The notes: generated by a model not told the origin, from the sequence alone. DNA of 32,000 nucleotides from Candidatus Saccharimonadota bacterium (GCF_029232205.1 NZ_CP107255.1:900001-932000); one strand, 5' to 3'. Counted from the stretch's first letter, positions 1-32,000 are shown. Translations and numbers: made by a program.

Positions 1-1
1 T

Positions 2-223
2 GAAGAAATGAACAGACACCAGAGAGCAATGGAAAAATCGACAGAAATACTTGGAGGCCAGGACTTTTACAAAACAGTTATGGAAGAATTTGGAGTTGAG
101 GAAACACAGGATTCAGGTGAGTTTCTCAGAGCTCACGGAATAGAACCAGGAACTCTTTCAGAACAGCTTCTTGAGGAAGAAGGAAAAAGAGAAAGAAAGG
201 CCTGTTTCCTGGAAAGAGGCTAG
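2..223 (+). CDS. hypothetical acidic protein, C-terminal part (frame open at the window edge)
   Basis: Reading frame is open from base 2. ORF-track ORF 8..223 gives a Glu-rich tail with no recognisable domain. Confidence 0.3.
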   Translation, partial: EEMNRHQRAMEKSTEILGGQDFYKTVMEEFGVEETQDSGEFLRAHGIEPGTLSEQLLEEEGKRERKACFLERG

Positions 224-648
224 TAAGGCTGCTCGGCACTATATCTGAACGTGACGTTTGCGGAGTCACTGAGCCTGTAGTTGTCAACAGATGTCGAAGG
301 CATTTCTCCATCAACGTAGAAAAGCCAGCTATGAGTATCGTTCTGACTCAGACCATTAATAGAAGTTACAAAGTAGCCAAAGTCGTACTCCGTATACTCA
401 ACATCGTAAGTGCTGTTTAAGACATGGAAAACCGTAGAGTTCTGCCTTACAGAAACATTCTCATTCAGAACAGCGTCCGGTTTCTCGACAGTCAAATTCA
501 CGACAACATGCTCTTCACCAAAAGTAACCTCCGGCGCAGAGTTAGAGAACTGCATTCCTGAAGCTGCAAGCGCAAGCAGGAAAAGGCCTGCAAAGATGTA
601 AAATACGTCTTTCTTACCGATAAAGTCCAATTTTTTCTTTAGATCCAT
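220..648 (-). CDS. DUF4430-like (transcobalamin-fold) exported or membrane-anchored protein
   Basis: 142 aa with N-terminal anchor VFYIFAGLFLLALAASG. C-terminal WLFYVDGE...VDNYRLSDSANVTFRY pattern is typical of DUF4430. Six N-x-S/T sequons. Overlaps the upstream membrane gene by 35 nt. Confidence 0.6.
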   Translation of the reverse strand: MDLKKKLDFIGKKDVFYIFAGLFLLALAASGMQFSNSAPEVTFGEEHVVVNLTVEKPDAVLNENVSVRQNSTVFHVLNSTYDVEYTEYDFGYFVTSINGLSQNDTHSWLFYVDGEMPSTSVDNYRLSDSANVTFRYSAEQPY

Positions 649-1192
649 AGAGTATCAACCCAAAACCAACTGTACTAACAAGATGAGCGAACGCAAACGG
701 AAGGGCCGCAGCCATAAACGCAAAACTGAAGCCCGAGGCCATAAAACCTACAGAAGCCAGATTAATAACAACCTCGTAAACCACAAGGCCTACAGCTGTC
801 GATACAAGAAAAGCATTTCTACCCTTGCTAATATTTCCTGCAAGGCCTCCTGTAACACCTGCTGCTGCAGCACCAAGCACCTGGAAAAACGTCCAGGGGC
901 CCTGACCTCCCCACACAAGAAAGTTCGAAATATAATATCCAGTGGCTCCAGCAGCAACGCCTTCACGCATACCAAAGTAGAAACCCGTAGCAGCTGCTAC
1001 AGCGATCAAAGGCTCTACACTCGGCACATGCTGCAAGGCCACTCTACCAGCAACACCGGTAGCTGTCAAAACTGCGGTGACTGCAAAGGCCTTTGTCTTG
1101 AAGTATGATTTTGACCTAGAATCTGATTGCTCGAAAAAAGCATCTAGATCAACCGCTGTTTCAGCGCTCATAGAAAAATTCTCCCCCTTCAA
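614..1192 (-). CDS. ECF-transporter S-component-like polytopic membrane protein
   Basis: 192 aa with 5-6 Gly/Ala-rich hydrophobic helices. Pairing with a DUF4430 gene is a known arrangement for vitamin-type S components. Assignment rests on pattern only. Confidence 0.5.
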   Translation of the reverse strand: MKGENFSMSAETAVDLDAFFEQSDSRSKSYFKTKAFAVTAVLTATGVAGRVALQHVPSVEPLIAVAAATGFYFGMREGVAAGATGYYISNFLVWGGQGPWTFFQVLGAAAAGVTGGLAGNISKGRNAFLVSTAVGLVVYEVVINLASVGFMASGFSFAFMAAALPFAFAHLVSTVGFGLILYGSKEKIGLYR

Positions 1193-1311
1193 TTCTCCCC
1201 ATAATCTGTAACCGATTATTGGGACTACTTCATTAAGAGTCTTCGGACCTCCAACCGATCAGTTAAAAAATTAGGCCTACAGAAATTCTACTACAGACAA
1301 TCTTTACTCCA

Positions 1312-1321
1312 ATGCGAGGGT
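1312..1321 (+). repeat. 10-nt copy (atgcgagggt) of the tRNA-Leu 5' junction
   Basis: Identical to 1419..1428. Followed by an imperfect hairpin, gaagatct 1323-1330 / agatcttc 1334-1341. Confidence 0.6.
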
Positions 1322-1364
1322 CGAAGATCTCTAAGATCTTCTCGACACAAGCAAATCTATGATT

Positions 1365-1381
1365 TGCGAGGGTAGCCAAGT
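1365..1381 (+). repeat. 17-nt copy (tgcgagggtagccaagt) of the tRNA-Leu 5' end
   Basis: Exact match to 1420..1436, which is the -1 base plus tRNA positions 1-16. Confidence 0.75.
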
Positions 1382-1420
1382 TGATTGCCAACCCTCCAAA
1401 AACAAACTGGCAAAACAGAT

Positions 1421-1503
1421 GCGAGGGTAGCCAAGTGGTCAAAGGCGCAGCGTTGAGGGCGCTGTCCTGTAGAGGTTCCGGGGTTCGAATCCTCGCTCTC
1501 GCA
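1421..1503 (+). tRNA. tRNA-Leu(GAG)
   Basis: Acceptor GCGAGGG/CTCTCGC. Anticodon stem CAGCG/CGCTG with loop TTGAGGG. Long variable arm. T-arm CGGGG-TTCGAAT-CCTCG. Discriminator A. Confidence 0.9.
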
Positions 1504-1575
1504 AGTCCATATTCCTACGAATCACGCGATTCTCTGTTTATAGGGAAGTCAGCTCCATAACCGAGAGCAAGACAA

Positions 1576-2319
1576 TCACGTTGAAAGATTCTCATCAAAC
1601 CAGGATTCTGTAGCCTCAATAACTTCATCCAGATTTTTATCGTAGTCGTGAGTTAAACCTTCAACTACCTTAAGTTCCCCCGCTTCCAGTTTTTCTACAG
1701 CTTTCTTGGAGTCTTCTAAATCTACTACCTCGTCCTCACTGCCGTGGATAATCAACACAGGACAACCCACTTCTGAGAGGAGTTCTTCCTGGTCTACATG
1801 TTTCATTTCGTCTACTATTTTCGAGCCTATCCACATCAATTGCTTCTTGTTCTTCCAGTAGTTAACACTCGGAACTCTGCCTACTAACCTAGCGAGTACC
1901 GTCCAGAGCAAGTTTTTCTTCGACAAGTCGATGCTGCTAGTTACAGGAGCCGTTAATACCATCGCCTTGACTTCAGATCTGTAATTCTTCAGCGAAATGT
2001 AGCCGCCGAGACTGTGACCATATAGACCAACTCTCTCCACATCTCGAGATCGGATGTATTCAATGGCTGCGTCCAGATCTTCAATCTCTTTTTCTGCTGT
2101 AATTGGAGATTTATTGCTTTCTCCACCACCTGAAAAATCGAAAGCTAACACATTATAACCTGCTTCATTCAGTGCTTCCGCTACTTTATCGAAGTAACCC
2201 CATTCGTGTTTATCGCCAGTAAATCCGTGACTCATCACTATTCCAGCATCTGAGTCAGCTTCGTGGTAGTTTCCAACCAGCTTCCGTCCCCGACCATTCT
2301 CAAATTTTACTTTCTGCAT
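1576..2319 (-). CDS. alpha/beta-fold serine hydrolase
   Basis: 247 aa. Nucleophile elbow GHSLGG, HGFTG oxyanion region, C-terminal IIHGSEDEVV and THDY (Asp/His) motifs. Confidence 0.8.
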   Translation of the reverse strand: MQKVKFENGRGRKLVGNYHEADSDAGIVMSHGFTGDKHEWGYFDKVAEALNEAGYNVLAFDFSGGGESNKSPITAEKEIEDLDAAIEYIRSRDVERVGLYGHSLGGYISLKNYRSEVKAMVLTAPVTSSIDLSKKNLLWTVLARLVGRVPSVNYWKNKKQLMWIGSKIVDEMKHVDQEELLSEVGCPVLIIHGSEDEVVDLEDSKKAVEKLEAGELKVVEGLTHDYDKNLDEVIEATESWFDENLST

Positions 2320-2466
2320 AGCTTGGATATCTCATCAAACACTAAAACTTCTGCGGAAGATCGAACACCCATAAAAACCCCGCAGAGGCATACAACAGAG
2401 TTTGATTCAGAACGTCTCAGCTGTGCGTCGCTCTCGCACTCATCTACTTTAACTTCTTCAGAAAAA

Positions 2467-3018
2467 CTATTCTTCCTTCATAATCAGAGCTGTAGAGATC
2501 ACAGCACCAACCAGGGACAGCGACCCCATTATCGTAAACAACGGATCGAAACCATGGTTCTGAATAATGTAGCCTGCGGCCATAGCGGAAATACCTGAGA
2601 CAATCCAGTACATCGACTCCCAGAGGCCCCATTCATAGGCGTAACGGCCTTCATCAAGATTTCGGGAATAAACCTCATCGAAAGCCGGAGATCTCACCGC
2701 TGTTGCAATACCTACAACGGCCTGAACTGCGAAAAGCTGCACAGCATTATCAACAAGAAGATAGCCGAAGAATCCTATGGTAGAAATAAAGTAACCAAGC
2801 ACTACAAGTTTTCTGGTATCAACAACTTTATCCTCAAGCCTGCTGGAAATAAAAATCAGTATTCCAGCAACTATGGCATAGATACTGTATGAACTTCCGG
2901 CAATAAATGCTCCACCACCAATCTTATCTACAAATACTGCATAAAACGGTGCAAAGAGTGCTGCCGCAAAAATACTGAATGCAGAGGCCGTATTTAGAAT
3001 CTTCAGCTGCCTGTTCAC
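2467..3018 (-). CDS. MFS-like transporter, six-helix half-size protein
   Basis: 183 aa with about six TM helices. A loop resembling MFS motif A lies between TM2 and TM3 (SSRLEDKVVDTRK). No second six-helix half follows. Confidence 0.5.
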   Translation of the reverse strand: MNRQLKILNTASAFSIFAAALFAPFYAVFVDKIGGGAFIAGSSYSIYAIVAGILIFISSRLEDKVVDTRKLVVLGYFISTIGFFGYLLVDNAVQLFAVQAVVGIATAVRSPAFDEVYSRNLDEGRYAYEWGLWESMYWIVSGISAMAAGYIIQNHGFDPLFTIMGSLSLVGAVISTALIMKEE

Positions 3019-3160
3019 AAATTATTTCTGGACAGGCCTGCATTTAATTCTTCCTGGATGGATAGAAGAGGCCAAAAGAACGTTTTGGAGATAAGTTTGG
3101 CAGTTATAGGTTTCCATAAGTGCCACAAATGATTAAACACTGCAAGGCCTAAGAGCAGAT

Positions 3161-3793
3161 ATGGAAAGAATTTATGCAATTGCATTGCTTGCAGCTGTTA
3201 TAGCTGTTTCAGGCTGTACTTCCACTACGTCAAGCGATACAGGCCAGTTTGAGCTACTTATCTCAGATCAACAGGCCGCTATCGATGACTTTGACTATCT
3301 TAACGTCGAGTTCTCTCACGCGAATATCTTTGCTGTAAACAACAGTAGCGTAAACGTGCAACAGGTTTCACTGAACAACACTTCTGCAGTCGATCTGACT
3401 CAGGTCAGAAATCTTACCGCAGAGTCACTTGTCAACACAACGCTGCCAGCAGGAAACTACAGCAAGATCGAACTTTACTCTGAGAGAATCAATGCCTCTG
3501 TCGACGGCGAAAACGTGGATGTAAAGATACCGCCAGGAAAACTGATGATCACAAAGCCTTTCGAAGTAAGGCCTAACGAGACAACAAGCTTCGTATTCGA
3601 CATCCAGGTAGTTCTCAGAGGAAACCAGCAGAACAACCAGGGATACATCCTCAGACCCGTAACCTCCGAATCAGGAGTCGCAGGCCGGGACGTAGAAGTC
3701 GAGAGGAAGAGAACAAGAGACAGAAACCGGAGCATGAACCAGACAGAGCAGCCGCCAACACCAAACAATTCTTCACAGGGACAGGGCCAGTAA
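3161..3793 (+). CDS. DUF4382-like lipoprotein
   Basis: 210 aa. Signal peptide with lipobox AVSGC. FELLISDQ...LNVEF start is typical of DUF4382. 13 N-x-S/T sequons. Basic/polar C-terminal tail. Confidence 0.55.
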   Translation: MERIYAIALLAAVIAVSGCTSTTSSDTGQFELLISDQQAAIDDFDYLNVEFSHANIFAVNNSSVNVQQVSLNNTSAVDLTQVRNLTAESLVNTTLPAGNYSKIELYSERINASVDGENVDVKIPPGKLMITKPFEVRPNETTSFVFDIQVVLRGNQQNNQGYILRPVTSESGVAGRDVEVERKRTRDRNRSMNQTEQPPTPNNSSQGQGQ

Positions 3794-3818
3794 AGGCCTT
3801 AAACCCTCTATTTTCTTA

Positions 3819-4598
3819 TCAAATTGAAAAACTTCTCTCAACCTCTCCTTCCACGAATACCTCTAACTCAAGGCCTGCATCAGATACGTCAACCATTGTA
3901 AAGTACTGATTGAAGCCCTCCTTTCTATCCTCAGAAATGAAGGGCGGATTGGTAAAGTGGGGCCTACCTTTGTACTCTGTTAAATCAAGATCATGGATAT
4001 GAGCATTGAAGACCGCTTTAACATTGTCATGCTTCTGCAAAACATTGTTAATCTCCTTTTTGTTGCCGCAGAAAGCTCTCTCAGGATACACATCCCAGAA
4101 ATAACTGTGAGACAGATCTCGAAAGTGAACAGGATGATGTATTACCAGAAAGGCCTCATCAAGACTCTCAAGAGTTTCATCCAGGAACTTCAGTTGATCT
4201 CTAGAAACCTGGCCGCGAGATCCTGAAAGCTCGGGAGCAGAGGAATCAAGAAACACAAATTTCTCGCCACCAACCTCTCTAATACCGAAGTTTTCCTGTG
4301 AAAACAGGTCCGAAAACTGTTCAGGCCCAACATCCTGTTCGTGATTGCCAGCAAGATAAAGCTTTTCGGCCTCAAGACTATCAAACCTATCTCTAATCTC
4401 TTTCAGTTCTTCAAGGCCTTCATCTTCCTCAGGTGCTTCGATACCTGTAGTAACTGCTCCTCCAATTAAATCTCCCAGCACTATAACCAGTTCTGGCCCT
4501 CTTCTTTCAATTTCATCAATTGTCCGGTCAAGAAGACGTAGCGCCTCCTCCCTATTCTCCTCAAGAAGATGTATATCCGAGATAACTGCGAACTTCAT
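3819..4598 (-). CDS. calcineurin-like metallophosphoesterase
   Basis: 259 aa. Motifs ISDIHL, GDLI, GNHE, HHP and NAHIH. Confidence 0.8.
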   Translation of the reverse strand: MKFAVISDIHLLEENREEALRLLDRTIDEIERRGPELVIVLGDLIGGAVTTGIEAPEEDEGLEELKEIRDRFDSLEAEKLYLAGNHEQDVGPEQFSDLFSQENFGIREVGGEKFVFLDSSAPELSGSRGQVSRDQLKFLDETLESLDEAFLVIHHPVHFRDLSHSYFWDVYPERAFCGNKKEINNVLQKHDNVKAVFNAHIHDLDLTEYKGRPHFTNPPFISEDRKEGFNQYFTMVDVSDAGLELEVFVEGEVERSFSI

Positions 4599-4647
4599 AA
4601 ACTGTATTTTTAACTCTGGCCGATTAAATCATTCTTGTCGACAGTTT

Positions 4648-4723
4648 TTGAGATGATGAAAACTCTTTCGACATCGTCTGATCCTCGAAAAGAGGGATGA
4701 TGACGAAAACACCCACTGATCAA
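4648..4723 (+). ncRNA. candidate C/D box sRNA
   Basis: C box ATGATGA 4653-4659, D' CTGA 4678-4681, C' ATGATGA 4697-4703, D CTGA 4716-4719. The C'-D spacer is exactly 12 nt. Small hairpin cctc-gaaaa-gagg lies between D' and C'. TATA-like ttaaat sits about 25 nt upstream. The C-D' spacer is 18 nt, which is non-canonical. Confidence 0.5.
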
Positions 4724-4725
4724 CA

Positions 4726-4890
4726 ATGATACTACTCGCATACGGCCTGGTCGTACTCGGATTCATCTTTCTAATAGCAGCAGCAATCCGAAGACACAAG
4801 GGCAAAGAATACAGAGATCTAATGCATACAGGAATAGCCTGCATACTTATCGCAGAAGTCGCCATAGCCACATTCCTTGTACTTTTCTAA
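4726..4890 (+). CDS. small two-helix membrane protein (54 aa, below the ORF-track cutoff)
   Basis: ATG 4726, TAA 4888-4890. Translation is MILLAYGLVVLGFIFLIAAAIRRHKGKEYRDLMHTGIACILIAEVAIATFLVLF. This is more protein-like than the antisense Cys/Arg/Ser-rich ORF 4629..4871. Confidence 0.35.
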   Translation: MILLAYGLVVLGFIFLIAAAIRRHKGKEYRDLMHTGIACILIAEVAIATFLVLF

Positions 4891-4946
4891 CCTCAGGTCC
4901 GGGGGATAGTTAAAAAGTTTCCCGGTTTAAACCCTGTTACTAGAAT

Positions 4947-5021
4947 GGTGGAGGTAGGTTAGTCGGTCCATACTACGACCTTGTGGCGGTCGTGACGCGG
5001 GTTCGAATCCCGCCCTCCGCC
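4947..5021 (+). tRNA. tRNA-His(GTG) with genome-encoded G-1
   Basis: G-1 at 4947 lies opposite C73. Acceptor GTGGAGG/CCTCCGC. Anticodon stem CGACC/GGTCG with loop TTGTGGC. T-arm GCGGG-TTCGAAT-CCCGC. Confidence 0.9.
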
Positions 5022-5040
5022 CTCCACGGTTTAACCACTC

Positions 5041-6416: not shown

Positions 6417-7889
<1,473 letters not shown>

Positions 7890-7943
7890 ACAAAAACATA
7901 GTTTCCTGGGATCAAAATCCAGGAAACATAGTTCATCATTTCA

Positions 7944-7955
7944 CCGTCTCTCCTA
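7944..7955. repeat. 3' arm of the 16S processing stem
   Basis: Complement of 6261..6272. Confidence 0.6.
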
Positions 7956-8050
7956 TCATATTTCACTTTCTAACTCAAATAGACTACTTTATTTGGAAAA
8001 CAAGCTGTTCTAACGAAGTATTTATAATATCTATCTGTTGTTACTTATTC

Positions 8051-8467
8051 ATGACAAACCAAACCGAGAGTGTTAGAAGATTCAAGCTGAACTTTGGCCT
8101 AGAGGGAACAACGCCAGCATACATAATGGAAACTGAAGATGACAACTATCTTCTGAGAGGTCGATTGACGGCAAAGGCCTTCGGACAGAATATGAGAAAA
8201 GGTGTTAGAGACGTCGAACTTCTGGATACCCTGTCAGATGAGGAGGTTGAAGAATACTCTGACGGCCAGGTAGTGGAGTACGACGGCGAGGAATGGAGAA
8301 AGGCCGATCTGAGACTTGATACAGACGTAGCGTATGATCAGGTAGATGCAAGAATACTTGAGTACAGTGGGCCTGGAGAAAGAATGTCCGTTTCTGTAGA
8401 AAATGAAGAAGTAGAGGGAATGGCCGAGGAGGCCTTGAAGAATTTCCGTGGAGAACTTTTCCACTAA
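8051..8467 (+). CDS. hypothetical acidic protein
   Basis: The track ORF 7862..8467 begins inside 16S. The first plausible start is ATG 8051 (MTNQTES...), with tttataat about 25 nt upstream, which fits a leaderless transcript. Confidence 0.55.
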   Translation: MTNQTESVRRFKLNFGLEGTTPAYIMETEDDNYLLRGRLTAKAFGQNMRKGVRDVELLDTLSDEEVEEYSDGQVVEYDGEEWRKADLRLDTDVAYDQVDARILEYSGPGERMSVSVENEEVEGMAEEALKNFRGELFH

Positions 8468-8470: not shown

Positions 8471-8974
8471 TTACTCATCGATGTCTTCGTCGAACTGATC
8501 TACCTGATGACTTAGCTTCGTGAGTAGATCGTCCGTCTCTGAGAGCGAGTTCTCAAGAGAGTCACGTTCCTCTTTCAGCTTCTGAATCTTTCTCTGCTGG
8601 GAACTGACTTTGGCCTCTAACTCTGCTTCCTCTTCCTTCTCATCATCAAGCTCGGATTCAAGATCATCGATCTCATCCTTCTTACTATCGAGCTTATCCT
8701 TCAGCTTGTCCTTAGTAGCCTTCAGATTCTCAACAGTATTCTTGAGATTCTTCTTCTCATCCCTGAGACGATCAACTTTTTCCTCAAGATCCTGTTTCTC
8801 CTGTTTAATCTCGGAAACCTTCTCGGCCTCCTTGTCAACTTTTTCTAGTAGCTTTTTGAGTTCCTGAACCTGTTTATCCGGGTGGGCCTCTCCTTCGTGA
8901 ATGTGTAGGCCTTTTTGAGAATCAAATTCTTCACCGCAGATATCGCATGTGAATGTCTGGTCATCGTCTGCCAT
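8471..8974 (-). CDS. C2H2 zinc-finger protein with a long acidic coiled coil
   Basis: 167 aa. N-terminal FTCDICGEEFDSQKGLHIHEGEAH has C-x2-C-x12-H-x4-H spacing. The rest is E/K/L heptad-like sequence. Confidence 0.65.
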   Translation of the reverse strand: MADDDQTFTCDICGEEFDSQKGLHIHEGEAHPDKQVQELKKLLEKVDKEAEKVSEIKQEKQDLEEKVDRLRDEKKNLKNTVENLKATKDKLKDKLDSKKDEIDDLESELDDEKEEEAELEAKVSSQQRKIQKLKEERDSLENSLSETDDLLTKLSHQVDQFDEDIDE

Positions 8975-9015: not shown

Positions 9016-9300
9016 TTATAAAGTTTCTAGACCACGTAAAAGCTTCCTGAGCTGACGGATCTGCTCCTCAGGATCTTCATCAAGATCATCTATAGAAATA
9101 CTGTCCTGATGATCCTGCCAACCCTTGTGGAAAGAATAGCTAAATTCATCCATTTCACCGATCTTAACACCTTCTCTACGGAGAACATCCTCCATGTTAA
9201 CAAGTACACGAACCAGTTTCTTGTTGGCCTCAAGAAGATTATCTCTCTGCTCCTTCAACTCTTCCAGCTCTTCCTGAGCGCTTTCAAGCTTCTGAAACAT
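9016..9300 (-). CDS. hypothetical coiled-coil protein
   Basis: Only the C-terminal 94 aa of track ORF 9016..9696 (from MFQKLESAQEELEEL) look protein-like. The Ser-rich N-terminal part is antisense to the 9416..9691 gene. Confidence 0.45.
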   Translation of the reverse strand: MFQKLESAQEELEELKEQRDNLLEANKKLVRVLVNMEDVLRREGVKIGEMDEFSYSFHKGWQDHQDSISIDDLDEDPEEQIRQLRKLLRGLETL

Positions 9301-9415
9301 TTCCTCGGCCTCTACTCTGTCAACCACAGAAACACTATAGAACCAGGCAAATAAAACAGGTAAGGCCTGACCACCGATACAAAGAAATAAGATTACCTGG
9401 CCAGAAAAAATACTT

Positions 9416-9691
9416 ATGCCGGAAGATGAGGACGTGGAGAACGAACTGAGAGAGACAGAGGAAGAAATCAAAGGCCTCATAGAAAGTATCGAAAAAGAAA
9501 GCTCCACACCAGAAGAAACATCAGTCACAACACCAGAGGACGACGACACAGAAGAAGAGAATACAGACGAAAAAGAAACCGTAGAGAAAGACGGAAAATA
9601 CATAGACAAATCCACCGGTAAAAAGTTCGATACAGAGGAAGGCCTCGAACTCTTCCAGCAAGCAACACAGATAAAGGACAAACAAGGATAA
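9416..9691 (+). CDS. hypothetical highly acidic protein with a ligand-less zinc-finger-like C-terminus
   Basis: 91 aa. Residues 62-85 (YIDKSTGKKFDTEEGLELFQQATQ) align with the C2H2 finger of the 8471..8974 protein, but all four metal ligands are replaced. Confidence 0.5.
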   Translation: MPEDEDVENELRETEEEIKGLIESIEKESSTPEETSVTTPEDDDTEEENTDEKETVEKDGKYIDKSTGKKFDTEEGLELFQQATQIKDKQG

Positions 9692-21478: not shown

Positions 21479-21832
21479 CTATATTTTTTTGGCGAATTTT
21501 TCTTTCATTTCCTCGATGTGAGGTACTAGCTGTCTTTCCTTGAGTTCTGCTTTGGATACCCATTCTCCTCTCTGAGGTTCTCCATCTATTTCAAGGACAT
21601 ACGGATTCCAGTTTTCGCCTGAAACCGTGGTCTTCAGTTTTTTACGGTACTTCTTGATGCTGCAGTTTACACCAGAGAAATCCTCGGAAACCCTTCTGGC
21701 TGCGTCTGCTGATAGCTCTCCTCTTTCAGGCCTTACAGTGGGTACATCCCATGCTTCATGTTCTTCGTTGTAGAAAACTAGTAATTTTTTGGATTGAACG
21801 ATTAGGCCTGCAGAGATACTTGAAACAGTCAT
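21479..21832 (-). CDS. Nudix-fold-like protein with a degenerate Nudix box
   Basis: 117 aa. WDVPTVRPERGELSADAARRVSEDFSGV loosely fits G-x5-E-x7-REUxEExGU. Confidence 0.4.
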   Translation of the reverse strand: MTVSSISAGLIVQSKKLLVFYNEEHEAWDVPTVRPERGELSADAARRVSEDFSGVNCSIKKYRKKLKTTVSGENWNPYVLEIDGEPQRGEWVSKAELKERQLVPHIEEMKEKFAKKI

Positions 21833-21914
21833 ACAGTATAATTATATCCGCTTGCTTATAATAGAGGGCCTCAGGATAGAAAAACAGTTAAGCCAGGCCA
21901 TTCTATTTACAGCT

Positions 21915-22337
21915 ATGAAGTATTCGATTACAGCTATACTTGCCTTGACAGTAATTGTTTCAGGATGCGCTACATTCACCCAGAACGATTCCTCAGAACC
22001 AGATGATATTGACGACATGGTTCCTAACTCGACGAACGCTACAGTAGTTGAGTACAGTTCCTCCGGGTTCCAGCCTTCAACTGTAACTGTTGAGCAGGGA
22101 GAGACAGTTATGTGGGCCAGTACCGGTCCTTCAATGTGGATTGGTTCAGATCAGCACCCATCCCACACAGAGTACTCCGGCACCAGTCTAGATGAACACT
22201 GTCAGAACGGAGAATCAGACACATTCGACCAGTGTGAAACCAGTCAGACATACAGCTTCACATTCAATCAGACCGGAGAATGGAGCTACCACAACCACGT
22301 CAGGCCTGGCGATACAGGAACAGTAATTGTAGAATAA
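21915..22337 (+). CDS. cupredoxin-like lipoprotein
   Basis: Start moved to MKYSITAILALTVIVSGC (lipobox). C-terminal QTGEWSYHNHVRPGDTGTVIVE resembles the cupredoxin C-terminal strand, but no Cys ligand is evident. Confidence 0.45.
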   Translation: MKYSITAILALTVIVSGCATFTQNDSSEPDDIDDMVPNSTNATVVEYSSSGFQPSTVTVEQGETVMWASTGPSMWIGSDQHPSHTEYSGTSLDEHCQNGESDTFDQCETSQTYSFTFNQTGEWSYHNHVRPGDTGTVIVE

Positions 22338-22359
22338 GGCCTTCACTCTATTTTTCTTT

Positions 22360-23974: not shown

Positions 23975-23987
23975 TACTTAATCACCT

Positions 23988-25580
23988 CTAAAGCTGCTCC
24001 GGGTTGTAGTCAGCTTCTACGAGTTTTTGAATCTGAGCTTCGATCTCTTCAGGATCTCCTTCTCCTGCTAGCTCTGTAATTGCAGGCCCCATCTCTTTTG
24101 CGTAGGATGTAAGCTTTCTCTTCTTCTTCTCCTGAATTTCCTTTCTTTCTTTTCTCTTCAGGTATTTTCCTAGCTTTCTTCCTGCTTCCTGCAGGGCCAG
24201 TTTCATTTCTTTCCGGATTGGATCGTAGTTCGCTACGGCTTCCTTTCCTTCAGATGTGAATGGAACCCATACAGATGCTATGTGGATTGAGATGTAGAGC
24301 GGGCCTTGTGGCCTGTTTCCTGTCTGCGAAATGTTGTATCGGTTCCAGGAAACGTTTTCGATGGCCTTTGTGGTTACACACGCCGATTTCTTGTATAGTA
24401 GCGGTACTTTGTTTGCGTATCGGAGTTCTTCGAAGCTTCCTTCGTCTTCGATGTCTCCTCCCCATGCTAGGCCTACTTCTACCTGGAATGGATTTCCTTT
24501 GTATACTGTTGGTTTTCGAGTAATTGTTTCTGTGAACTCTGGGTTGAGTTCTTTTGTGAGGCCTTTCTCCATCAGGTCTTCGCCGATAGGGCTCAGGCAG
24601 TCTGTTGGAGGGCTCTGTAGTTTTACTCTCTGTGCTGCGTCGAGGATTTCTTCGACTTCGTCTTTGTCGAGAGTGTTTGGTCTTCGGCCGTCGTCTACTC
24701 CTGCTTCGTCGCATACTTCCTGTGCGCTTGTTCTTCCTACTCTTGTGAATTCTTCCTGTAGGAAGCTGCTTACTGTTCGTGCGTTGGAGTTGTCGATCAT
24801 TCTGAGGACTACTCCTAGTTCTACTCCGTGCAGGTGTGGTTTGATCTCTTTTGGTTTTTCAGGTAGTTCTTTTGAGACTCTTGGGAACTCTACCTTGTTT
24901 CCGTCTGGTTCTCTTAGCACGATTCTTGCGTACGGGTTCATGATTGCCGTGTGCTTGAGGTAGTTGTAGACGGAGTGGTGGCCTCTTGTGTATTTGGCCT
25001 CGATATTCATTTCGATGCTGGTTCCGTGGTCGAAGTAGTAGTCTTTCTCTCCCGGGAACTCATCGCTTTCCGGATCGACTACTTCGTCTTCTAGAATCTC
25101 TGGTTCGTTTTTCTCTGTGTCAATTCTGACAACGAAGCGGTGGCATGGTTCTCCTTCCTGTTTTGAGTATACAGTTACTGGCTCTCCAGTTGTCAGCTGC
25201 GCGTACATCGCGGAAGCGGAGATACCGATTCCCTGCTGACCTCTGCTCTGCTGGAGCTTGTGGAACTTTGAACCGTATAGAAGTTTACCAAATACCTTTG
25301 GAATTGTTTCTCTATCAAGGCCTATTGCGTTGTCCCTGATTTCTATTCGGCATTTGCCTTCTGAGTACTCGTCAATAAGGACGTGTATTTCCGGAAGAAT
25401 CTCGTCTTCCTCACATGCGTCCAGCGAGTTGTCCACAGCTTCTTTTACTACTGTTATAATGGATTTCTGTGCGTTTTCGAAACCTAGAAGGTGTTTGTTT
25501 TTCTCAAAGAATTCGGCGACGGAAATCTCTCTATGGTCTCCGCCACTTGCTTCCATGCCTTCTTCTACTCCGTTTGCCAT
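23988..25580 (-). CDS. top6B: DNA topoisomerase VI subunit B
   Basis: 530 aa. GHKL ATPase motifs VKEAVDNSLDA, DNAIGL and GQQGIG. Lies immediately upstream of top6A. Confidence 0.95.
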   Translation of the reverse strand: MANGVEEGMEASGGDHREISVAEFFEKNKHLLGFENAQKSIITVVKEAVDNSLDACEEDEILPEIHVLIDEYSEGKCRIEIRDNAIGLDRETIPKVFGKLLYGSKFHKLQQSRGQQGIGISASAMYAQLTTGEPVTVYSKQEGEPCHRFVVRIDTEKNEPEILEDEVVDPESDEFPGEKDYYFDHGTSIEMNIEAKYTRGHHSVYNYLKHTAIMNPYARIVLREPDGNKVEFPRVSKELPEKPKEIKPHLHGVELGVVLRMIDNSNARTVSSFLQEEFTRVGRTSAQEVCDEAGVDDGRRPNTLDKDEVEEILDAAQRVKLQSPPTDCLSPIGEDLMEKGLTKELNPEFTETITRKPTVYKGNPFQVEVGLAWGGDIEDEGSFEELRYANKVPLLYKKSACVTTKAIENVSWNRYNISQTGNRPQGPLYISIHIASVWVPFTSEGKEAVANYDPIRKEMKLALQEAGRKLGKYLKRKERKEIQEKKKRKLTSYAKEMGPAITELAGEGDPEEIEAQIQKLVEADYNPEQL

Positions 25581-26962: not shown

Positions 26963-27316
26963 CTAGGTGTTCAGGTAGTGAGGTATGTTTCTTGCTTTCA
27001 GTCTCCATTCCTCTGCTTCTCTGAGTTCTTTGGCTATGAAGTTTTCCAGAAATTCTCGGCCGTATTCTTCTGCTACTTCCTCGTTGTAGACATCTTTAAG
27101 TATTGTTTTTGCTGTTGTCAGGCCTTCTGTGTTTCTTCTTCCCCATGAAAATGAGTTTCCTGTATTCTCAAGATTGTTTGATGGAGAGAGTTTTTCGCCC
27201 GTTGATTCTCCGCCTTTTACTACTCTGACTGTTTTATCTCCGCTCTGCATGCTGATATGGCCTTCATAAATTGCGTAGTAGTCTATGTTCTGTTCAGGAA
27301 GATTTCCTGCCATCAC
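26963..27316 (-). CDS. hypothetical protein inserted between aIF-1A and RIO1
   Basis: 117 aa. Motif FSWGRRNTEGLTTAKTILKDVY...EYGREF. No confident family. Confidence 0.5.
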   Translation of the reverse strand: MMAGNLPEQNIDYYAIYEGHISMQSGDKTVRVVKGGESTGEKLSPSNNLENTGNSFSWGRRNTEGLTTAKTILKDVYNEEVAEEYGREFLENFIAKELREAEEWRLKARNIPHYLNT

Positions 27317-27418
27317 AGAATATTTTTGACTCTCTGCTTAATAATCCAAAGTCTGCAGTAGAAGTTGTTAGGGCCTTAGCTTTGCTGAGTTGGAGGATAG
27401 AATGTAGAAGGGAAAATT

Positions 27419-27730
27419 TTAGAGGAATTCCTCTATTTCGTCTAGGAAGTCTCTGTCTTCCAGCCATCTTGTCTCCGCGTTGGAGTAGCTGTTGACGATG
27501 TCTCCTTTTTCGTCGCCCTGGATGTCCCATGGATCGACTAGTACTACTGAATCTCTTTTTACCCATAGGCCTCTTTTCTTTGATCCTGGGATTCGGCAGA
27601 TTCTTTCGTTTCCATCTGTGCAGTATACGCGGTATTTTCCGCCTCCTTCTTTTCTTAGAACTATTCCAAGTACCTCGTCGCCTTGCGGCCTGCGTACTCT
27701 TTGTACTTGTTCTTCTTCATCTTCTGGCAT
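27419..27730 (-). CDS. eif1A: translation initiation factor aIF-1A
   Basis: 103 aa S1/OB protein. GIVLRKEGGGKYRVYCTDGNERICRIPGSKKRGLWVKRDSVVLV. Confidence 0.9.
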   Translation of the reverse strand: MPEDEEEQVQRVRRPQGDEVLGIVLRKEGGGKYRVYCTDGNERICRIPGSKKRGLWVKRDSVVLVDPWDIQGDEKGDIVNSYSNAETRWLEDRDFLDEIEEFL

Positions 27731-27780
27731 ACAAACTATTTCTAAAGCAATTTTTTTAAACCACGACAGGGCCTCTGTTT

Positions 27781-28461
27781 TCAGTCAATTCTTACCGACA
27801 CTACGTTTCTGTATACTCTTTCCCCGTTTTCCTCTCCTACAAGTTCGTAGCTTCTCTTTATCTCCGGGTCGTATCTGTCTCTCAGCATTGATAGAATCTT
27901 CTTGTTCATTGGCTCTGTTGACAGGAAGAAGTCGATGCCGTGTTTGTTTTTCTCTACGTTGGCCAGAAAGTCTTTTCTGGTCTCATTCGTCAGTTCTGCG
28001 GCCTTATCGACAATATCATTTGATATAGGTTCTAGTTCGGCATCTCCTCTGAGCTGTATTTTGGCCTTGTAGAATCCTCCCTGGAATTTTGAGCAGTCCT
28101 TACACTGATGGTTTTTGAAGACCACCTGTGTGTCATATGAGTCCTTCATAGGGCCTTTTTCGGCGTGTACTCTGACATACATCTGATCTTCTTCCTCCCA
28201 GAACTGTAGCTGCATCTCCACGTCTTCTTCTGAGAAGTCGGAGAATTTTTCCGCTAGCTGGTCCTGTACTGTGTAGGCCTCGATCCACTGGCCTCTGTGT
28301 TTCATTCTTCCGCATACACTGCAGACCACGATTTCTACTTTGTCAGGGACTTCCAGGAGATCGTGTTTGTCTGTGTAGCAGTCTGCGCACAGCTTTTTCC
28401 CGTCTCCGTAGAGGGCCTTTGTTTCTTCGCCGCATCTTGGGCAGAATTTTGATAGTTCCAT
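27781..28461 (-). CDS. NMD3-family protein (archaeal homologue of the 60S export adaptor)
   Basis: 226 aa. N-terminal CPRCG...CADCY and VCSVCGR...H zinc clusters followed by the NMD3 core. Confidence 0.8.
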   Translation of the reverse strand: MELSKFCPRCGEETKALYGDGKKLCADCYTDKHDLLEVPDKVEIVVCSVCGRMKHRGQWIEAYTVQDQLAEKFSDFSEEDVEMQLQFWEEEDQMYVRVHAEKGPMKDSYDTQVVFKNHQCKDCSKFQGGFYKAKIQLRGDAELEPISNDIVDKAAELTNETRKDFLANVEKNKHGIDFFLSTEPMNKKILSMLRDRYDPEIKRSYELVGEENGERVYRNVVSVRID

Positions 28462-28542
28462 ATGGATTGGTTGTGTGGCAAAGGTTTTAACGCCGAAACC
28501 CCAACCTTTTTATTAATCAGATAATAAATTAGTTACTATAAG

Positions 28543-29286
28543 GTGACAACAAAAATGACAAGCGCAACCTGGGATCGTACGGATAGGATGCTGGAACGTA
28601 AAGAGGCTGATGGAGAAGTTGAGTGGAGAGATGGCGAACCTCACTTTGCAGGCCGGCATATGATTCACGAAGATACAGATATTGATGGCGGAGTTTATCT
28701 TGGCAGTGGAGAAAGAGAGGCCATCGTTGTTGATTCCGAGAAGTACGATGAAGTTGACAGAATGTATCAAAAGGCCAGAAGTAAGGCAACAGATTCCACA
28801 GGAAATGTGAACAAGAATTTTGCCCTTAATGCGGTTCACGAGGTAGCTATGGAAGAGTTTACTCCGTCCGAAGAAAATATGGACAGGCTTGTTGACATGT
28901 ACGGAGACATTACTGACGAAGATATTGATTCCGAGAGAGACATGAGAGATGAGGCCTATCTTTCCAGTAAGATTGCAGAACATTACGGAGTTCAGAACGA
29001 TGGAAAGATCGCTCTGGATGTTTTCGCGAAAGAAGGAGTTGGTGTCTGCCGTCACAGAGCTCTGGCTGCTGGAGCAATGATTGAAAAGTTCCAGGAAGAC
29101 GGAGTACTGACCGGAGAAGTAAGCGTGGACAGAAACTCACGCGGAAGATACGGTCACGCATGGGTCAGATACGAGAACTCAGCTGGCGAAGCCTTCGTGA
29201 TAGATCCAATGCAGGACACTATCGGGCGTCTTGAAGATACAGAAGACGCAGCCTGGGACTACGAAAGACCAGAGGACAACATTTGA
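28543..29286 (+). CDS. transglutaminase-like / papain-fold cysteine peptidase-like protein
   Basis: 247 aa. Putative triad GVGVCRHRA (Cys), YGHAWVRY (His) and FVIDP (Asp). Long acidic N-terminal region. Confidence 0.55.
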   Translation: MTTKMTSATWDRTDRMLERKEADGEVEWRDGEPHFAGRHMIHEDTDIDGGVYLGSGEREAIVVDSEKYDEVDRMYQKARSKATDSTGNVNKNFALNAVHEVAMEEFTPSEENMDRLVDMYGDITDEDIDSERDMRDEAYLSSKIAEHYGVQNDGKIALDVFAKEGVGVCRHRALAAGAMIEKFQEDGVLTGEVSVDRNSRGRYGHAWVRYENSAGEAFVIDPMQDTIGRLEDTEDAAWDYERPEDNI

Positions 29287-29630
29287 TCCTCTTTTCTTTC
29301 AAATTCTATTTTCTGGCCTTCCTCTATTTGCAGTTCTTCAAAGCTTTCAAGCAGGTAACGGTAAGGCCTTCCCGGAGAGTACACTTTCCACGTTTTCGGA
29401 TTGGGTGTCCAGGGCATTGCTTTCTGGATGTCGATGACTTCTTTTTCCGAGTTCATGAAGTAGAGATGTAGAGGTTTTCTGACCAGCATCATGTCTATTG
29501 AGGCCCTTGTGTCTCGAGAGAATGTGAACAGCATTTTTCCTTCTGTACGAAATGACAGGCCTCTGGCCTTTTTCAGGAATGAATCTGCTACCTCTACTTC
29601 ATGTTGTTCTCCGTTGATTTCGATCTTCAT
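29259..29630 (-). CDS. DUF192 (UPF0127) family protein
   Basis: 123 aa. ARGLSFR...MLF.F......IDMMLVRKPLHLYFMN pattern. Convergent 28-nt overlap with the previous gene. Confidence 0.6.
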   Translation of the reverse strand: MKIEINGEQHEVEVADSFLKKARGLSFRTEGKMLFTFSRDTRASIDMMLVRKPLHLYFMNSEKEVIDIQKAMPWTPNPKTWKVYSPGRPYRYLLESFEELQIEEGQKIEFERKEDQMLSSGLS

Positions 29631-29668
29631 GCAAAAAGTATTTGCGTTTGAGCGGTTAATTGTTTGGT

Positions 29669-30043
29669 ATGGACGAAGAAGAATTGAAGAAGAGGCTTTC
29701 AGAGGAAGAGTACAGGATTTTACGTGAGAGCGGTACAGAAGCTCCTGGTACCGGAGAGTTTCTGAATCACAGTGAGGCCGGAGTTTATCGGTGTAAGGCC
29801 TGCGGCCAGAAACTATTTCAGTCAGATGACAAGTTCGACTCCGATAGATGGCCTAGCTTCAAGGATGCGATCATGGACAATATAGAGTTGAAGAAAGATC
29901 TTAGCCATGGAATGAACCGTGTAGAAGTATGCTGTTCGGGCTGTGGATCTCACTTGGGCCATGTATTCGATGATGGGCCTGAGCCTACAGGCAAGAGATA
30001 CTGCATTAACTCGAAGGCCCTGGATTTTGAGGAAGAGAATTGA
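29669..30043 (+). CDS. msrB: peptide-methionine (R)-S-oxide reductase
   Basis: YRCKACGQKLF, WPSF, CSGCGSHLGHVFDDGP and RYCINS motifs. ATG 29669 is preferred over TTG 29660. Confidence 0.92.
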   Translation: MDEEELKKRLSEEEYRILRESGTEAPGTGEFLNHSEAGVYRCKACGQKLFQSDDKFDSDRWPSFKDAIMDNIELKKDLSHGMNRVEVCCSGCGSHLGHVFDDGPEPTGKRYCINSKALDFEEEN

Positions 30044-30091
30044 AAGCCACCTTGTGTGGCTTATTGCGTGTGAATCTGAGCGTAACCAGTT

Positions 30092-30163
30092 CGCCCTCAC
30101 AGGGATTTGAACCCTGGATCTGCACCTCCGCAAGGTGCCGTCTTTCCACTAGACCATGAGGGC
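30092..30163 (-). tRNA. tRNA-Arg(GCG)
   Basis: Acceptor GCCCTCA/TGAGGGC. Anticodon stem GCACC/GGTGC with loop TTGCGGA. T-arm CAGGG-TTCAAAT-CCCTG. Discriminator G. Confidence 0.9.
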
Positions 30164-30417
30164 CTGTATTGGTTTAAGTAGGCTATTTTTAAAACCGGTT
30201 CGAGAGGGTAGTGCAAACCTTTTTAACAACCTTCGTCATTAAACGTTTCTGTAGTGGTTTATCATGCTGAAAAAATACATTCAGAAGATCAAGGACAAGC
30301 TAGGCCTTTAGAGTTGGTTTAGTGGTCTGAGAACTATTTTAGGGTTTTAACCCTTCTTTTTTCTCTCCATTCTTGTTTTAACTTTTTCTTTCGTATTTGG
30401 TTTCTAGGTGACTTTAA

Positions 30418-30672
30418 ATGGGAAAGATTTCATGTGTTTACAAGATTATGCCGGAAGATGATGAAACCGATCTAGAGGATATTAAGAAGCAGGTTCAGGA
30501 ATTGCTGGATGTTCAGGATATCGGTGAGGAGAATGTTGCTTTCGGTTTGAAGGCTGTAAAGGTTTCTTGCATTACTACTGATGAGGAAGGCGGAACTGAT
30601 TCCGTTGAGGAGAAGCTTGAACAGCTTGATAACGTTCAGAGTTATGAGCTTGAGCACTTTGACAAGCTTTAG
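30418..30672 (+). CDS. ef1b: translation elongation factor aEF-1beta
   Basis: 84 aa. YKIMPEDDETDL, ENVAFGLKAVKV and DEEGGTDSVEEKL pattern. Confidence 0.88.
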   Translation: MGKISCVYKIMPEDDETDLEDIKKQVQELLDVQDIGEENVAFGLKAVKVSCITTDEEGGTDSVEEKLEQLDNVQSYELEHFDKL

Positions 30673-30699
30673 GCTTGTTGCTCTTTCATATTTATTTTT

Positions 30700-30837
30700 C
30701 TATTCGAATGTTCTTTCTCCGCCGTTGCATACCGCGCAGCCATTCTCTTTCTTGTGTTCCTGACATACGTTAGCGCCGCATACCTCACAGCTTGTGACAG
30801 CTTTCTTTTTCTGGCAGTAGTCGCAGAGGCCTTCCAT
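30700..30837 (-). CDS. small zinc-finger protein (45 aa, below the ORF-track cutoff)
   Basis: Translation is MEGLCDYCQKKKAVTSCEVCGANVCQEHKKENGCAVCNGGERTFE. Spacing is CxxC-x8-CxxC-x4-C-x2-H-x5-CxxC, a cross-brace HIT/B-box-like pattern. Divergent from fen with AT-rich promoter DNA in between. Confidence 0.5.
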   Translation of the reverse strand: MEGLCDYCQKKKAVTSCEVCGANVCQEHKKENGCAVCNGGERTFE

Positions 30838-30877
30838 AGTTAGTGTTTAAACTTTGAAGATTAATTGGTTTTTTGTT

Positions 30878-31909
30878 ATGGGAGTTAACCTTGGAGAACT
30901 GGTTGAGAGCGAGGAAATAAGTTTTGCAGATTTAAACGATAAAGAGATAGCGATCGATGCTATGAATACCTTGTACCAGTTTCTCTCTATTATCCGTCAG
31001 CGAGACGGTACTCCACTGAAGGATTCGTCCGGAGAAGTTACTTCTCATCTTTCAGGCCTCTTCTACAGAAACATTAATCTCCTTGACAATAATATCAGGC
31101 CTGTCTTCGTTTTTGACGGCGAGGCTCCTGATCTCAAGGAGAAAGAGACCACGCAGAGAAGGAAGAAGCGGGAAGAGGCCCGTGAGGAGTGGAAGAAGTT
31201 GAAGGATGAGGGCAAGGTTTCTGAGGCTTACAGTAAGGCCACTCAATCGAGTAAGTTGACTGGTGATATGATTAAGGAGTCGAAGAGGCTTCTTGATGCT
31301 ATGGGTATTCCCTATGTTCAGGCTCCTAGCGAGGGCGAGGCCCAGACAGCTTACATGACTCATGAAGATTATCCTGGTAGTATCTATGCTGCGGGTTCTC
31401 AGGACTGGGATTCTCTGCTTTTTGGCGCTGAGAAGATGGTGAAGAATCTTACTACAAGAAAGACTCGGAAGACCTCTGGTGGAGGTAGAAAGGAGATTTC
31501 CACAGAGCTAATCAGGCTTGATAGTGTTCTTGAGCAGCTTGAAGTCTCTCAGGAAGAGCTGATCTGGATGGGAGTTCTGATGGGCACGGATTTCAACCCT
31601 GATGGAGTACATGGTATCGGGCCTAAGACCGCTCTAAAGCTTGTTAAAAAGTATAATTCCTGGGATAAGCTGTTTGAAGACGATAAGGTTGAGTGGGAGT
31701 CGGATAACGATCCGGAGACAATTATTGAGTTTTTCAAGAATCCTCCTGTTGAGGATATCGAGTATGAGTTCGGTGATCCTGATGAGGAGAAGATTAAGGA
31801 GATTCTCGTGGATGACCACGATTTCTCCGAAGATAGAGTAGAATCAGGCCTGAAAGACCTTTCCAACGCGTTGAGTTCGCGTCAGTCAGGCCTTGATAGC
31901 TTTACCTAG
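30878..31909 (+). CDS. fen: flap endonuclease 1
   Basis: Starts MGVNLGELV. XPG-N and XPG-I motifs (FVFDG, EGEAQ, SQDWDSLLFG) and the H3TH motif GIGPKTALKL. ATG 30878 is preferred over TTG 30854. Confidence 0.93.
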   Translation: MGVNLGELVESEEISFADLNDKEIAIDAMNTLYQFLSIIRQRDGTPLKDSSGEVTSHLSGLFYRNINLLDNNIRPVFVFDGEAPDLKEKETTQRRKKREEAREEWKKLKDEGKVSEAYSKATQSSKLTGDMIKESKRLLDAMGIPYVQAPSEGEAQTAYMTHEDYPGSIYAAGSQDWDSLLFGAEKMVKNLTTRKTRKTSGGGRKEISTELIRLDSVLEQLEVSQEELIWMGVLMGTDFNPDGVHGIGPKTALKLVKKYNSWDKLFEDDKVEWESDNDPETIIEFFKNPPVEDIEYEFGDPDEEKIKEILVDDHDFSEDRVESGLKDLSNALSSRQSGLDSFT

Positions 31910-31910
31910 T

Positions 31911-32000
31911 TTACTGGCTTCTGTAGTCTTTCAGTATAAGCTCCATCATTTCTCCAAGTTCTTGGTATCCCTGTCTGATGTCTTCGATTGCTTCTTCCTG
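31911..32000 (-). CDS. C-terminal end of an unidentified CDS running off the window
   Basis: The open minus-strand frame ends ...QEEAIEDIRQGYQELGEMMELILKDYRSQ, with its stop at 31911-31913. Only 29 codons are visible. Confidence 0.25.
   Translation of the reverse strand, partial: QEEAIEDIRQGYQELGEMMELILKDYRSQ

Follow-up and report, generated by a model that had tools for sequence, protein, structure and literature searches.

The palindromic hexamer AGGCCT is strongly over-represented in a stretch of 32,000 nucleotides (the window, positions 1 to 32,000) which, judged from its sequence, is DNA of an uncultured nanohaloarchaeon of the DPANN archaea with 46% G + C. It occurs 71 times where base composition (an order-0 model) predicts 6.5, that is, 10.97-fold, and is the most frequent hexamer of the window, above GAAGAA. 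The reading put forward here, to which a probability of about one half is given, is that AGGCCT is a HIP-type sequence, an archaeal counterpart of the highly iterated palindrome HIP1 (GCGATCGC) and of the “alternate HIPs” of cyanobacteria, and that it would owe its abundance to a mobile enzyme of StuI specificity together with a local bias in repair or recombination. The sequence that was read comprises the 32 kb of the source genome and about 21 kb from each relative.

The assignment to the nanohaloarchaea is based on topoisomerase VI subunit B (Topo VI-B), which is 81–91% identical to nanohaloarchaeal proteins (89% to that of Candidatus (Ca.) Nanosalina sp. VS9-1, whose complete genome is CP180230.1), and on an identical contig derived from the Sequence Read Archive (L001), which matches the window at 100% identity along 3.2 kb. 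No strain-level polymorphism was seen at AGGCCT sites, L001 being the sole exact-match contig.

A preliminary description made from the sequence alone had put AGGCCT at about 70 copies against about 6 expected, some ten-fold, and the inner tetramer GGCC at about 220 against about 75, roughly one third of the latter lying in the hexamer. The recount agrees with it closely: all of the coordinates it had listed are correct, and GGCC occurs 233 times against 88.4 expected (order-0), with 30% of the copies within AGGCCT. The hexamer starts at the following positions:

Part 1: 198, 584, 786, 843, 1087, 1273, 3034, 3145, 3569, 3794, 3871, 4151, 4414, 5346, 5645, 5708
Part 2: 8175, 8430, 8907, 9363, 9472, 9640, 10185, 10731, 11266, 14049, 14307, 14859, 14905, 15278
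Part 3: 16130, 16182, 16397, 16475, 16984, 17812, 18063, 18313, 18808, 19549, 19996
Part 4: 20093, 20836, 20970, 21475, 21728, 21804, 22302, 22337, 22550, 22611, 23640, 24469, 24559
Part 5: 25318, 26422, 26518, 26845, 27120, 27567, 28275, 28952, 29364, 29557, 29796
Part 6: 30302, 30827, 31054, 31097, 31846, 31888

The sites are spread evenly along the window, with 5–11 per 4-kb bin and the ribosomal RNA (rRNA) genes in the low bins. Their spacing goes down to 12 bp and is nearly exponential (coefficient of variation 1.07), so clustering or periodicity at this local scale was rejected. The flanks of the hexamer carry at most 0.16 bit (position −1), and positions −10 to −2 at most 0.08 bit. A dispersed repeat element, such as a repetitive extragenic palindrome or a miniature inverted-repeat transposable element, was rejected because no sequence is shared past the core and the sites lie in frame inside conserved genes.

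Thirty-five genes were called in the window with a self-trained codon model, and 50 sites lie in coding DNA; the sites at 786–1273 were counted as intergenic and may fall in an uncalled gene. Permutation of codons gives 6.3 ± 2.5 coding sites (z = 17.7 for the 50 observed), a synonymous shuffle 10.6 ± 2.9 (z = 13.8), and a third-position shuffle which keeps the protein and all dinucleotides 24.2 ± 3.3 (z = 7.8). All three codon phases are enriched (9, 17 and 24 sites), and the excess is not confined to a single dipeptide; expected numbers are given below first for codon permutation and then for the synonymous shuffle.

Phase AGG-CCT (Arg-Pro): 9 sites, 1.0 and 2.4 expected; for example 16397–16402, plus strand, in an arginase-family gene (15896–16672)
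Phase xAG-GCC-Txx: 17 sites, 2.0 and 3.6 expected; for example 18063–18068, plus strand, in the arginyl-tRNA synthetase gene (16685–18355)
Phase xxA-GGC-CTx (x-Gly-Leu): 24 sites, 3.3 and 4.6 expected; for example 16984–16989, plus strand, in the arginyl-tRNA synthetase gene

Counted from the gene starts at 15896, 16685 and 19845, sites 16397 and 16475 are in phase 0, 18063, 19996 and 20836 in phase 1, and 16984, 17812 and 18313 in phase 2, just as had been described. Without correction, the density is 3.17 sites per kb in intergenic DNA, 2.31 in coding DNA and 0.40 in rRNA plus transfer RNA (tRNA) genes; with the RNase P RNA counted as RNA, structural RNA has 0.75 per kb and the remaining DNA 2.51. 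The RNA genes and the sites at stop codons are as follows:

6417–7890, plus strand: 16S rRNA gene (Rfam), 0 AGGCCT
11567–14513, plus strand: 23S rRNA gene (Rfam), only 2 AGGCCT (14049 and 14307) in 2947 nt
14713–15092, plus strand: archaeal RNase P RNA (RF00373, 74.4 bits against a gathering score of 84, E = 1.5e-20), AGGCCT at 14859 and 14905
3794–3799: AGGCCT in intergenic DNA, immediately past the TAA stop of gene 3161–3793, taaAGGCCTtaa
21475–21480: AGGCCT overlapping the TAG stop of gene 21479–21832 (minus strand), TAGGCCT on the minus strand
22337–22342: AGGCCT overlapping the final base of the TAA stop of gene 21852–22337

The lack of sites in the 16S gene, the two in the RNase P RNA and those abutting or overlapping stop codons (3794, 10731, 21475 and 22337) had all been noticed before and are found again; the 16S gene is a strongly constrained sequence which resists the bias. 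A cause at the level of DNA, and not an amino-acid or codon preference, as the preliminary description had argued, is supported because all phases and the intergenic DNA are enriched and the codon-preserving nulls fail; in addition, enrichment and avoidance switch among close relatives sharing the same proteins.

In the Markov comparison which it had proposed as a check, a corrected expectation close to the observed count had been named as grounds for refutation. The maximal-order expectation, 69.8, does lie close to the 71 observed, but the expectations of orders 0 to 3 (6.5, 8.3, 17.8 and 40.9) and the codon-aware nulls remain below. The maximal-order value is no refutation, because that model conditions on pentamers which are mostly supplied by the site itself (AGGCC occurs 128 times and GGCCT 127 times, and 55% of these are the site); it was discarded as uninformative, and lower orders and shuffles were used instead. 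The excess resides in the GGCC core (z = 12) and in a preference for 5′ A and 3′ T (z about 5.7), the two flanks being statistically independent in the window and also in three other enriched genomes. Such a structure, a core plus independent flanks, would be expected if recognition is symmetric and each half-site contributes additively.

The preliminary description had also called for comparison with related genomes, and this locates the trait in some nanohaloarchaeal lineages, their near relatives being neutral or avoiding GGCC. The comparison covered 80 topoisomerase VI loci taken from GTDB species, for the most part bacteria and other DPANN, and 21 nanohaloarchaeal loci. Among the 80, none of 10 kb or more exceeds about 3.2-fold for AGGCCT. 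The 21 are sharply bimodal: the window stands at 11-fold, VS9-1 at 22-fold (97 against 4.4 expected), locus L214 at 22-fold and locus L220 at 18.6-fold, and the remainder are near 1-fold, with three loci having zero AGGCCT. Pooled, the four enriched loci contain 262 sites in 87 kb where 15.6 are expected (16.8-fold), and 15 close-relative controls contain 57 in 215 kb where 43 are expected. Because GGCC outside AGGCCT is at expectation (1.05–1.17-fold) in three of the four enriched genomes, the hexamer is taken as the unit; the window is the exception, with such GGCC at 2-fold and a lower occupancy. A tree of six proteins (1495 columns, neighbour joining with 100 bootstraps) shows a star-like radiation with a poorly resolved backbone, in which no pair among the enriched lineages (window, VS9-1 and L220) is grouped in any bootstrap (0 of 100) and each stands beside non-enriched genomes. 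From these sequences there appear to be at least three non-sister enriched lineages, L214 and L220 counting as one, and the backbone fits several gains or many losses alike.

Close relatives avoid the core of the same palindrome: GGCC is at 0.25-fold in L083 (GCA_022729235.1; 18 against 71 expected) and at 0.07-fold in L215 (the SL_4KL_010_BRINE contig; 1 against 14). Moreover, the avoided palindrome differs from lineage to lineage, being ACGT in L088 (0.02-fold), CTAG in L091 (0.11-fold) and TGCA in L084, that is, Ca. Nanohalococcus occultus (0.17-fold). Because each lineage avoids its own palindrome, enzymes of the restriction-modification (R-M) type must turn over rapidly in the nanohaloarchaea. 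R-M-type enzymes shape genomes by restriction-site avoidance, as seen in these sister lineages, but the window lineage has the opposite sign, and its AGGCCT enrichment behaves like another lineage-specific enzyme signature. Dcm-like cytosine methylation has been shown experimentally in a nanohaloarchaeon, and Ca. Nanohalococcus occultus has cytosine methylation of GDGCHC, shown by PacBio sequencing, and one GTGCAC in its genome (PMC10266531, PMC11001535). The L084 locus lacks GTGCAC, which fits this published methylation system, and carries a gene of the GmrSD family (type IV restriction) at 13615–15330 beside topoisomerase VI. In the 21.6 kb of L088 (ENA ERZ28435281 NODE_1), ACGT occurs only twice and six ACGT-containing hexamer palindromes are absent, which suggests that the nanohaloarchaeon or its host may have an ACGT-specific restriction enzyme.

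Viral contigs were also scanned for triplets of AGGCCT. The hits were mainly tandem repeats, with none halophilic or related to the window, and were rejected; L176 is a polyomavirus, and L174 is an element with integrase, ParA and DnaB without a methyltransferase. Two mutually related IMG/VR contigs of 36% GC, L093 and L168, have dispersed AGGCCT, often as AAGGCCTT, at 33-fold (13 sites in 3.6 kb) and 15-fold (8 in 5 kb), ratios which are inflated because the contigs were chosen for a site triplet; their open reading frames (ORFs) match no PHROG family, and their proteins are not acidic and show no nanohaloarchaeal similarity.

The degree of saturation is best seen at permitted positions, that is, those where the protein allows AGGCCT by synonymous choice: Arg-Pro, Lys/Glu/Gln-Ala followed by a codon starting with T, and a codon ending with A followed by Gly-Leu. 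The window occupies 50 of 85 such positions (59%) and VS9-1 84 of 104 (81%), while four non-biased relatives occupy 3–18%; counted on orthologs only, occupancy in relatives without the bias is 0–22%. For six genes common to 18 genomes it is 53–85% in the four enriched genomes and 0–31% in the 14 others. Furthermore, permitted positions themselves number 9.7–10.9 per 1000 codons in the four and 6.7–9.1 in the 14, a full separation with a rank probability of 1/3060; the bias shifts protein sequences slightly. The window and VS9-1 are both occupied at 11 of 16 shared permitted positions, which is no excess over independent filling (Fisher p = 0.45), and L214 and L220 have 11 sites in common and 9 and 7 private ones. 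At positions filled in the window and VS9-1, relatives without the bias carry synonymous variants such as CGGACT, TGGGCT and AGGTCT. The same is seen in a codon alignment of Topo VI-B, in which several window sites are AGGCCT in VS9-1 and synonymous words one or two changes off (CGGGCT, CGGACT and AGGTCT) in the non-biased relatives; the gene has three sites, one of which is:

24469–24474, minus strand: AGGCCT in the topoisomerase VI-B gene (23988–25580, minus strand)

Permitted positions are filled whatever the distance to the next site, and this saturation, together with near-random spacing and no extended motif, points to a per-site force and not to selection for overall density.

The words left over at permitted positions reveal the profile of this force. 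In the window 17 of 20 single-mismatch leftovers differ at an outer base, mostly by A to G (GGGCCT or AGGCCC), and 0 of 20 at a central one; in VS9-1 the central class is 0 of 11, which makes 0 of 31 for the two together. In four control genomes, 38–54% of single misses are central, mostly transversions (AGGACT and AGGGCT), two words which are common in the controls and found at 0 of 189 permitted positions in the window and VS9-1. Relative to controls, the enriched pool (87 kb) contains 2.1–6.1 times as many flank variants and 0.5–1.0 times as many core variants, namely 0.52 for AGACCT/AGGTCT, 0.53 for ACGCCT/AGGCGT, 0.99 for AAGCCT/AGGCTT and 0.8–1.0 for the others. A plain loss of sites by decay along the lineage of the window was rejected, since relaxation is confined to the flanks and the core is intact.

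The freely evolving hexamer was also modelled as a Markov chain of 4096 states. Infinitely strong Vsr-like correction yields at most 3.6-fold enrichment when it acts on one cytosine and at most 7.6-fold on both, and leaves transversion neighbours unaffected. A bias at all positions (2-fold at the flanks, 6-fold at positions 2 and 5 and 20-fold at the centre) yields 26-fold, with flank neighbours at 1.7-fold and central ones at 0.4–0.5-fold, an output near the neighbour pattern of VS9-1. Leftovers, variant counts and the chain model together therefore indicate a directional force on each of the six positions and on mismatches of every type, which is strongest at GGCC and weaker and independent at the outer bases.

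In the HIP-type reading, the agent would be a horizontally mobile R-M-type enzyme of StuI specificity, most likely a DNA methyltransferase. Around methylated sites, mismatch correction or recombination would be skewed locally: site-creating changes would be fixed, the new strand being marked as “parental” or preferentially recombined, and site-destroying changes would be reverted. Such a ratchet would end with nearly all permitted positions filled. Partial recognition of NGGCCT would exert a weaker pull on the outer A and T, and if the gene for the enzyme is quickly gained and lost, a patchy distribution would follow.

The precedent is cyanobacterial. According to Elhai, one-off variants of HIP1 differ mainly at the first or last base, the core is a methyltransferase site, and alternate HIPs occur sporadically in single strains, each with its cognate methyltransferase; in the ratchet proposed there, methylation leads mismatch repair astray and changes that create a site are retained (PMC4390886). 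In addition, two recent preprints argue for a role of methylated HIP1 in promoting DNA uptake or recombination (10.1101/2024.09.10.611283, 10.64898/2026.06.24.733823), and HIP1 shows a long-range periodicity (10–90 kb) along the chromosome (Xu et al. 2018, PMC5861425). The likeness lies in a GC-rich palindrome at least 15-fold over-represented in all frames and between genes, in one-off variants at the outer bases around an inner core of methyltransferase type, in the sporadic occurrence in single lineages known for alternate HIPs, and in a cause disputed between biased repair, selection and uptake. However, AGGCCT is a hexamer and HIP1 an octamer, the host here is a DPANN archaeon, the density is 2.2–4.5 per kb and not the approximately 1 per kb of HIPs, permitted positions are nearly saturated, sister lineages avoid the same core, and the methyltransferase is here only postulated.

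Several points weigh against the HIP-type reading. Searches of the window (Pfam, PADLOC and NCBIfam), of locus L082 (Pfam list) and of L220 (Pfam scan) brought up neither a DNA methyltransferase nor a restriction enzyme, a Vsr or a glycosylase; L220 has a generic methyltransferase domain of small-molecule type only. Methylation of AGGCCT is putative, and a suitable mismatch-repair system in these DPANN genomes is hypothetical. The ratchet of Elhai predicts saturation at about 1 site per kb, but up to 4.5 per kb are present, and this density requires a process of shorter range than MutH-like (long-patch) mismatch repair. Moreover, the sequence data fit transmission bias and direct per-site selection alike, and Xu et al. 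favour selection as the explanation of HIP1 (PMC5861425).

Among other explanations, the one placed first in the preliminary description, a 5-methylcytosine methyltransferase combined with Vsr- or Mig-type T:G repair which turns AGGTCT or AGGCTT into AGGCCT (very-short-patch repair), does not hold up in that form and is very unlikely as the sole cause. Bhagwat and McClelland reportedly connected Dcm/Vsr very-short-patch repair with the over-representation of CCWGG in E. coli in 1992. A methylated palindrome raised by sequence-specific repair would be common to both cases, and AGACCT/AGGTCT, the product of inner-cytosine deamination, is modestly depleted here while AAGCCT/AGGCTT is unchanged; since the former is halved, T:G repair may contribute. 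However, the very-short-patch effect is small and depletes only the T neighbour, whereas here the enrichment is 11–22-fold, beyond the model ceiling of 3.6- or 7.6-fold, the outer A and T and positions 2 and 5 are driven too, ACGCCT/AGGCGT is depleted as much as AGGTCT, and AGGACT and AGGGCT, both transversions, are lacking from permitted positions as fully as AGGTCT is; such repair is insufficient as a sole cause. Horst and Fritz are said to have described in 1996 a GGCC methyltransferase, M.MthTI, with a T/G glycosylase, Mig.Mth, on plasmid pFV1 of Methanothermobacter, that is, archaeal GGCC cytosine methylation with T:G correction in a mobile pair of the kind that could contribute; this pair is not known to make its site hyper-abundant, and no homologue was located in the stretches that were read. 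That the excess is a by-product of codon, amino-acid, dinucleotide or dipeptide preference, or an artefact of assembly, is hardly credible. Choice of GGC and GCC codons and the dinucleotides across codon boundaries (third to first position) do carry part of it, the dinucleotide-preserving null rising to 24, but 50 sites exceed even this strictest null, enrichment extends to every phase, the density is higher between genes than within them, and the orthologous proteins of relatives have an occupancy of 0–9%; the same pattern recurs in four independent assemblies, and the contig L001 is identical to the window.

Two further explanations were likewise among the candidates of the preliminary description. 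One is an uptake or recombination signal, in which AGGCCT alleles are taken up or recombined more often with no benefit per site, methylation being optional; it seems rather unlikely. Haemophilus uptake signal sequences (USS) and Neisseria DNA uptake sequences (DUS) are said to accumulate by such molecular drive (Maughan, Wilson and Redfield in 2010), and they resemble AGGCCT as short words strongly over-represented inside genes (in all frames) and outside them, with position-specific strength and no need of a function per site. Known uptake sequences, however, are asymmetric (non-palindromic), 9–12 nt long, often arranged as inverted pairs in terminators and present about once per kb in naturally competent bacteria, which counts against this drive; an asymmetric 9–12 nt motif of the USS/DUS type with a flanking consensus was not seen here, the word being a 6-bp palindrome with at most 0.16 bit outside. 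A drive of this kind acts on all positions and mismatches according to receptor specificity, fits a centre stronger than the flanks and flanks that are independent, and can attain very high enrichment. Recent work on HIP1 leans towards such a signal: transformation increases by a factor of more than 100 with methylated HIP1 (10.1101/2024.09.10.611283), and a correlation between the abundance of HIP1 and Type IV secretion system proteins has been interpreted by its authors as a role in DNA uptake (10.64898/2026.06.24.733823). In addition, nanohaloarchaea have giant surface proteins with a VirB4/TraG-like ATPase domain (PMC10266531). Against this, competence or DNA exchange in nanohaloarchaea is hypothetical, a palindrome of 6 bp is a poor means of telling self from foreign DNA, and avoidance of GGCC in sister lineages points to R-M-type enzymes. 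A doubtful elaboration would make AGGCCT, probably methylated, a self-DNA tag which biases transfer or recombination among nanohaloarchaeal cells or across cytoplasmic bridges to haloarchaeal hosts, written by molecular drive and gained or lost with a mobile StuI-type enzyme; if true, it would be the first uptake- or recombination-signal sequence in Archaea, and the GGCC-avoiding sisters would be the opposite outcome of the same arms race. The other explanation, which also seems improbable, is a directly selected binding site, where an abundant dimeric nucleoid, segregation or condensation protein binds AGGCCT under weak selection per site. A palindrome with independent half-site flanks suits a symmetric dimer with additive contacts, the sites are evenly spread along the loci, and for HIP1 Xu et al. 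infer selection and a role in chromosome structure (PMC5861425). However, filling of 59–90%, gaps of 12–30 bp and exponential spacing are unlike a density-dependent structural role, and a core chromatin function is unlikely to come and go, or to flip to avoidance of the core, at 75–80% protein identity.

As for the rest of the window, its protein genes include topoisomerase VI A and B, arginyl-tRNA synthetase, deoxyhypusine synthase, RIO1 kinase, NMD3 and FEN1, and Rfam finds the archaeal 16S and 23S rRNA genes and seven tRNAs; a 5S rRNA gene was not found within the 32 kb. The 16S and 23S genes are unlinked, with 3.7 kb between them which contain the following:

7862–8467: protein-coding ORF
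8471–8974: protein-coding ORF, minus strand
9109–9354: protein-coding ORF
9416–9691: protein-coding ORF
9730–10728: protein-coding ORF
11013–11086: tRNA-Ala, on the strand opposite to the rRNA genes

The ORF at 8471–8974 (167 amino acids) has weak matches of coiled-coil type to SMC, Rad50, LmuB and JetC models, far under the cut-offs, and is probably a small coiled-coil protein and not a defence gene. The RNase P RNA lies some 200 nt downstream of the 23S gene and matches the full length of its model, yet a default annotation run would miss it; nanohaloarchaeal RNase P seems to be divergent from the Rfam seed. In composition, TAC/GTA (z 8–10) and GTAG/CTAC (z 4–5) are over-represented in the window, TATA is at 0.34-fold, and GCGCGC is absent where 4.6 are expected. 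The A/T skew tracks the coding strand, being −0.26 to −0.42 over 22–28 kb, where the genes are on the minus strand.

Full-text literature searches on AGGCCT in nanohaloarchaea or as an over-represented word yielded no paper in which the hexamer is mentioned, and none dealing with VS9-1; searches on HIPs brought up no archaeal HIP-type sequence. What is new is that DPANN archaea have a HIP-like hexamer, and that it is denser than its cyanobacterial counterparts and nearer to saturation. There is also a methodological lesson, for maximal-order Markov tests can mask a real signal when the sub-words of a word are mostly supplied by the word itself. Work on hyper-abundant palindromes has until now been largely confined to cyanobacteria, and their cause is disputed after 30 years, so an independent occurrence in DPANN archaea with genomes of 1 Mb, in which up to 80–90% of permitted positions are filled, is of interest. 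At least three enriched lineages among neutral and core-avoiding relatives, at about 75–80% protein identity, constitute a natural experiment of presence and absence, and the gene or genes responsible should emerge when a few small genomes, among them the complete CP180230.1, are compared. Furthermore, the case shows that codon choice can be overridden by a drive at the level of DNA, which in a streamlined symbiont can also change conserved proteins to a measurable degree.

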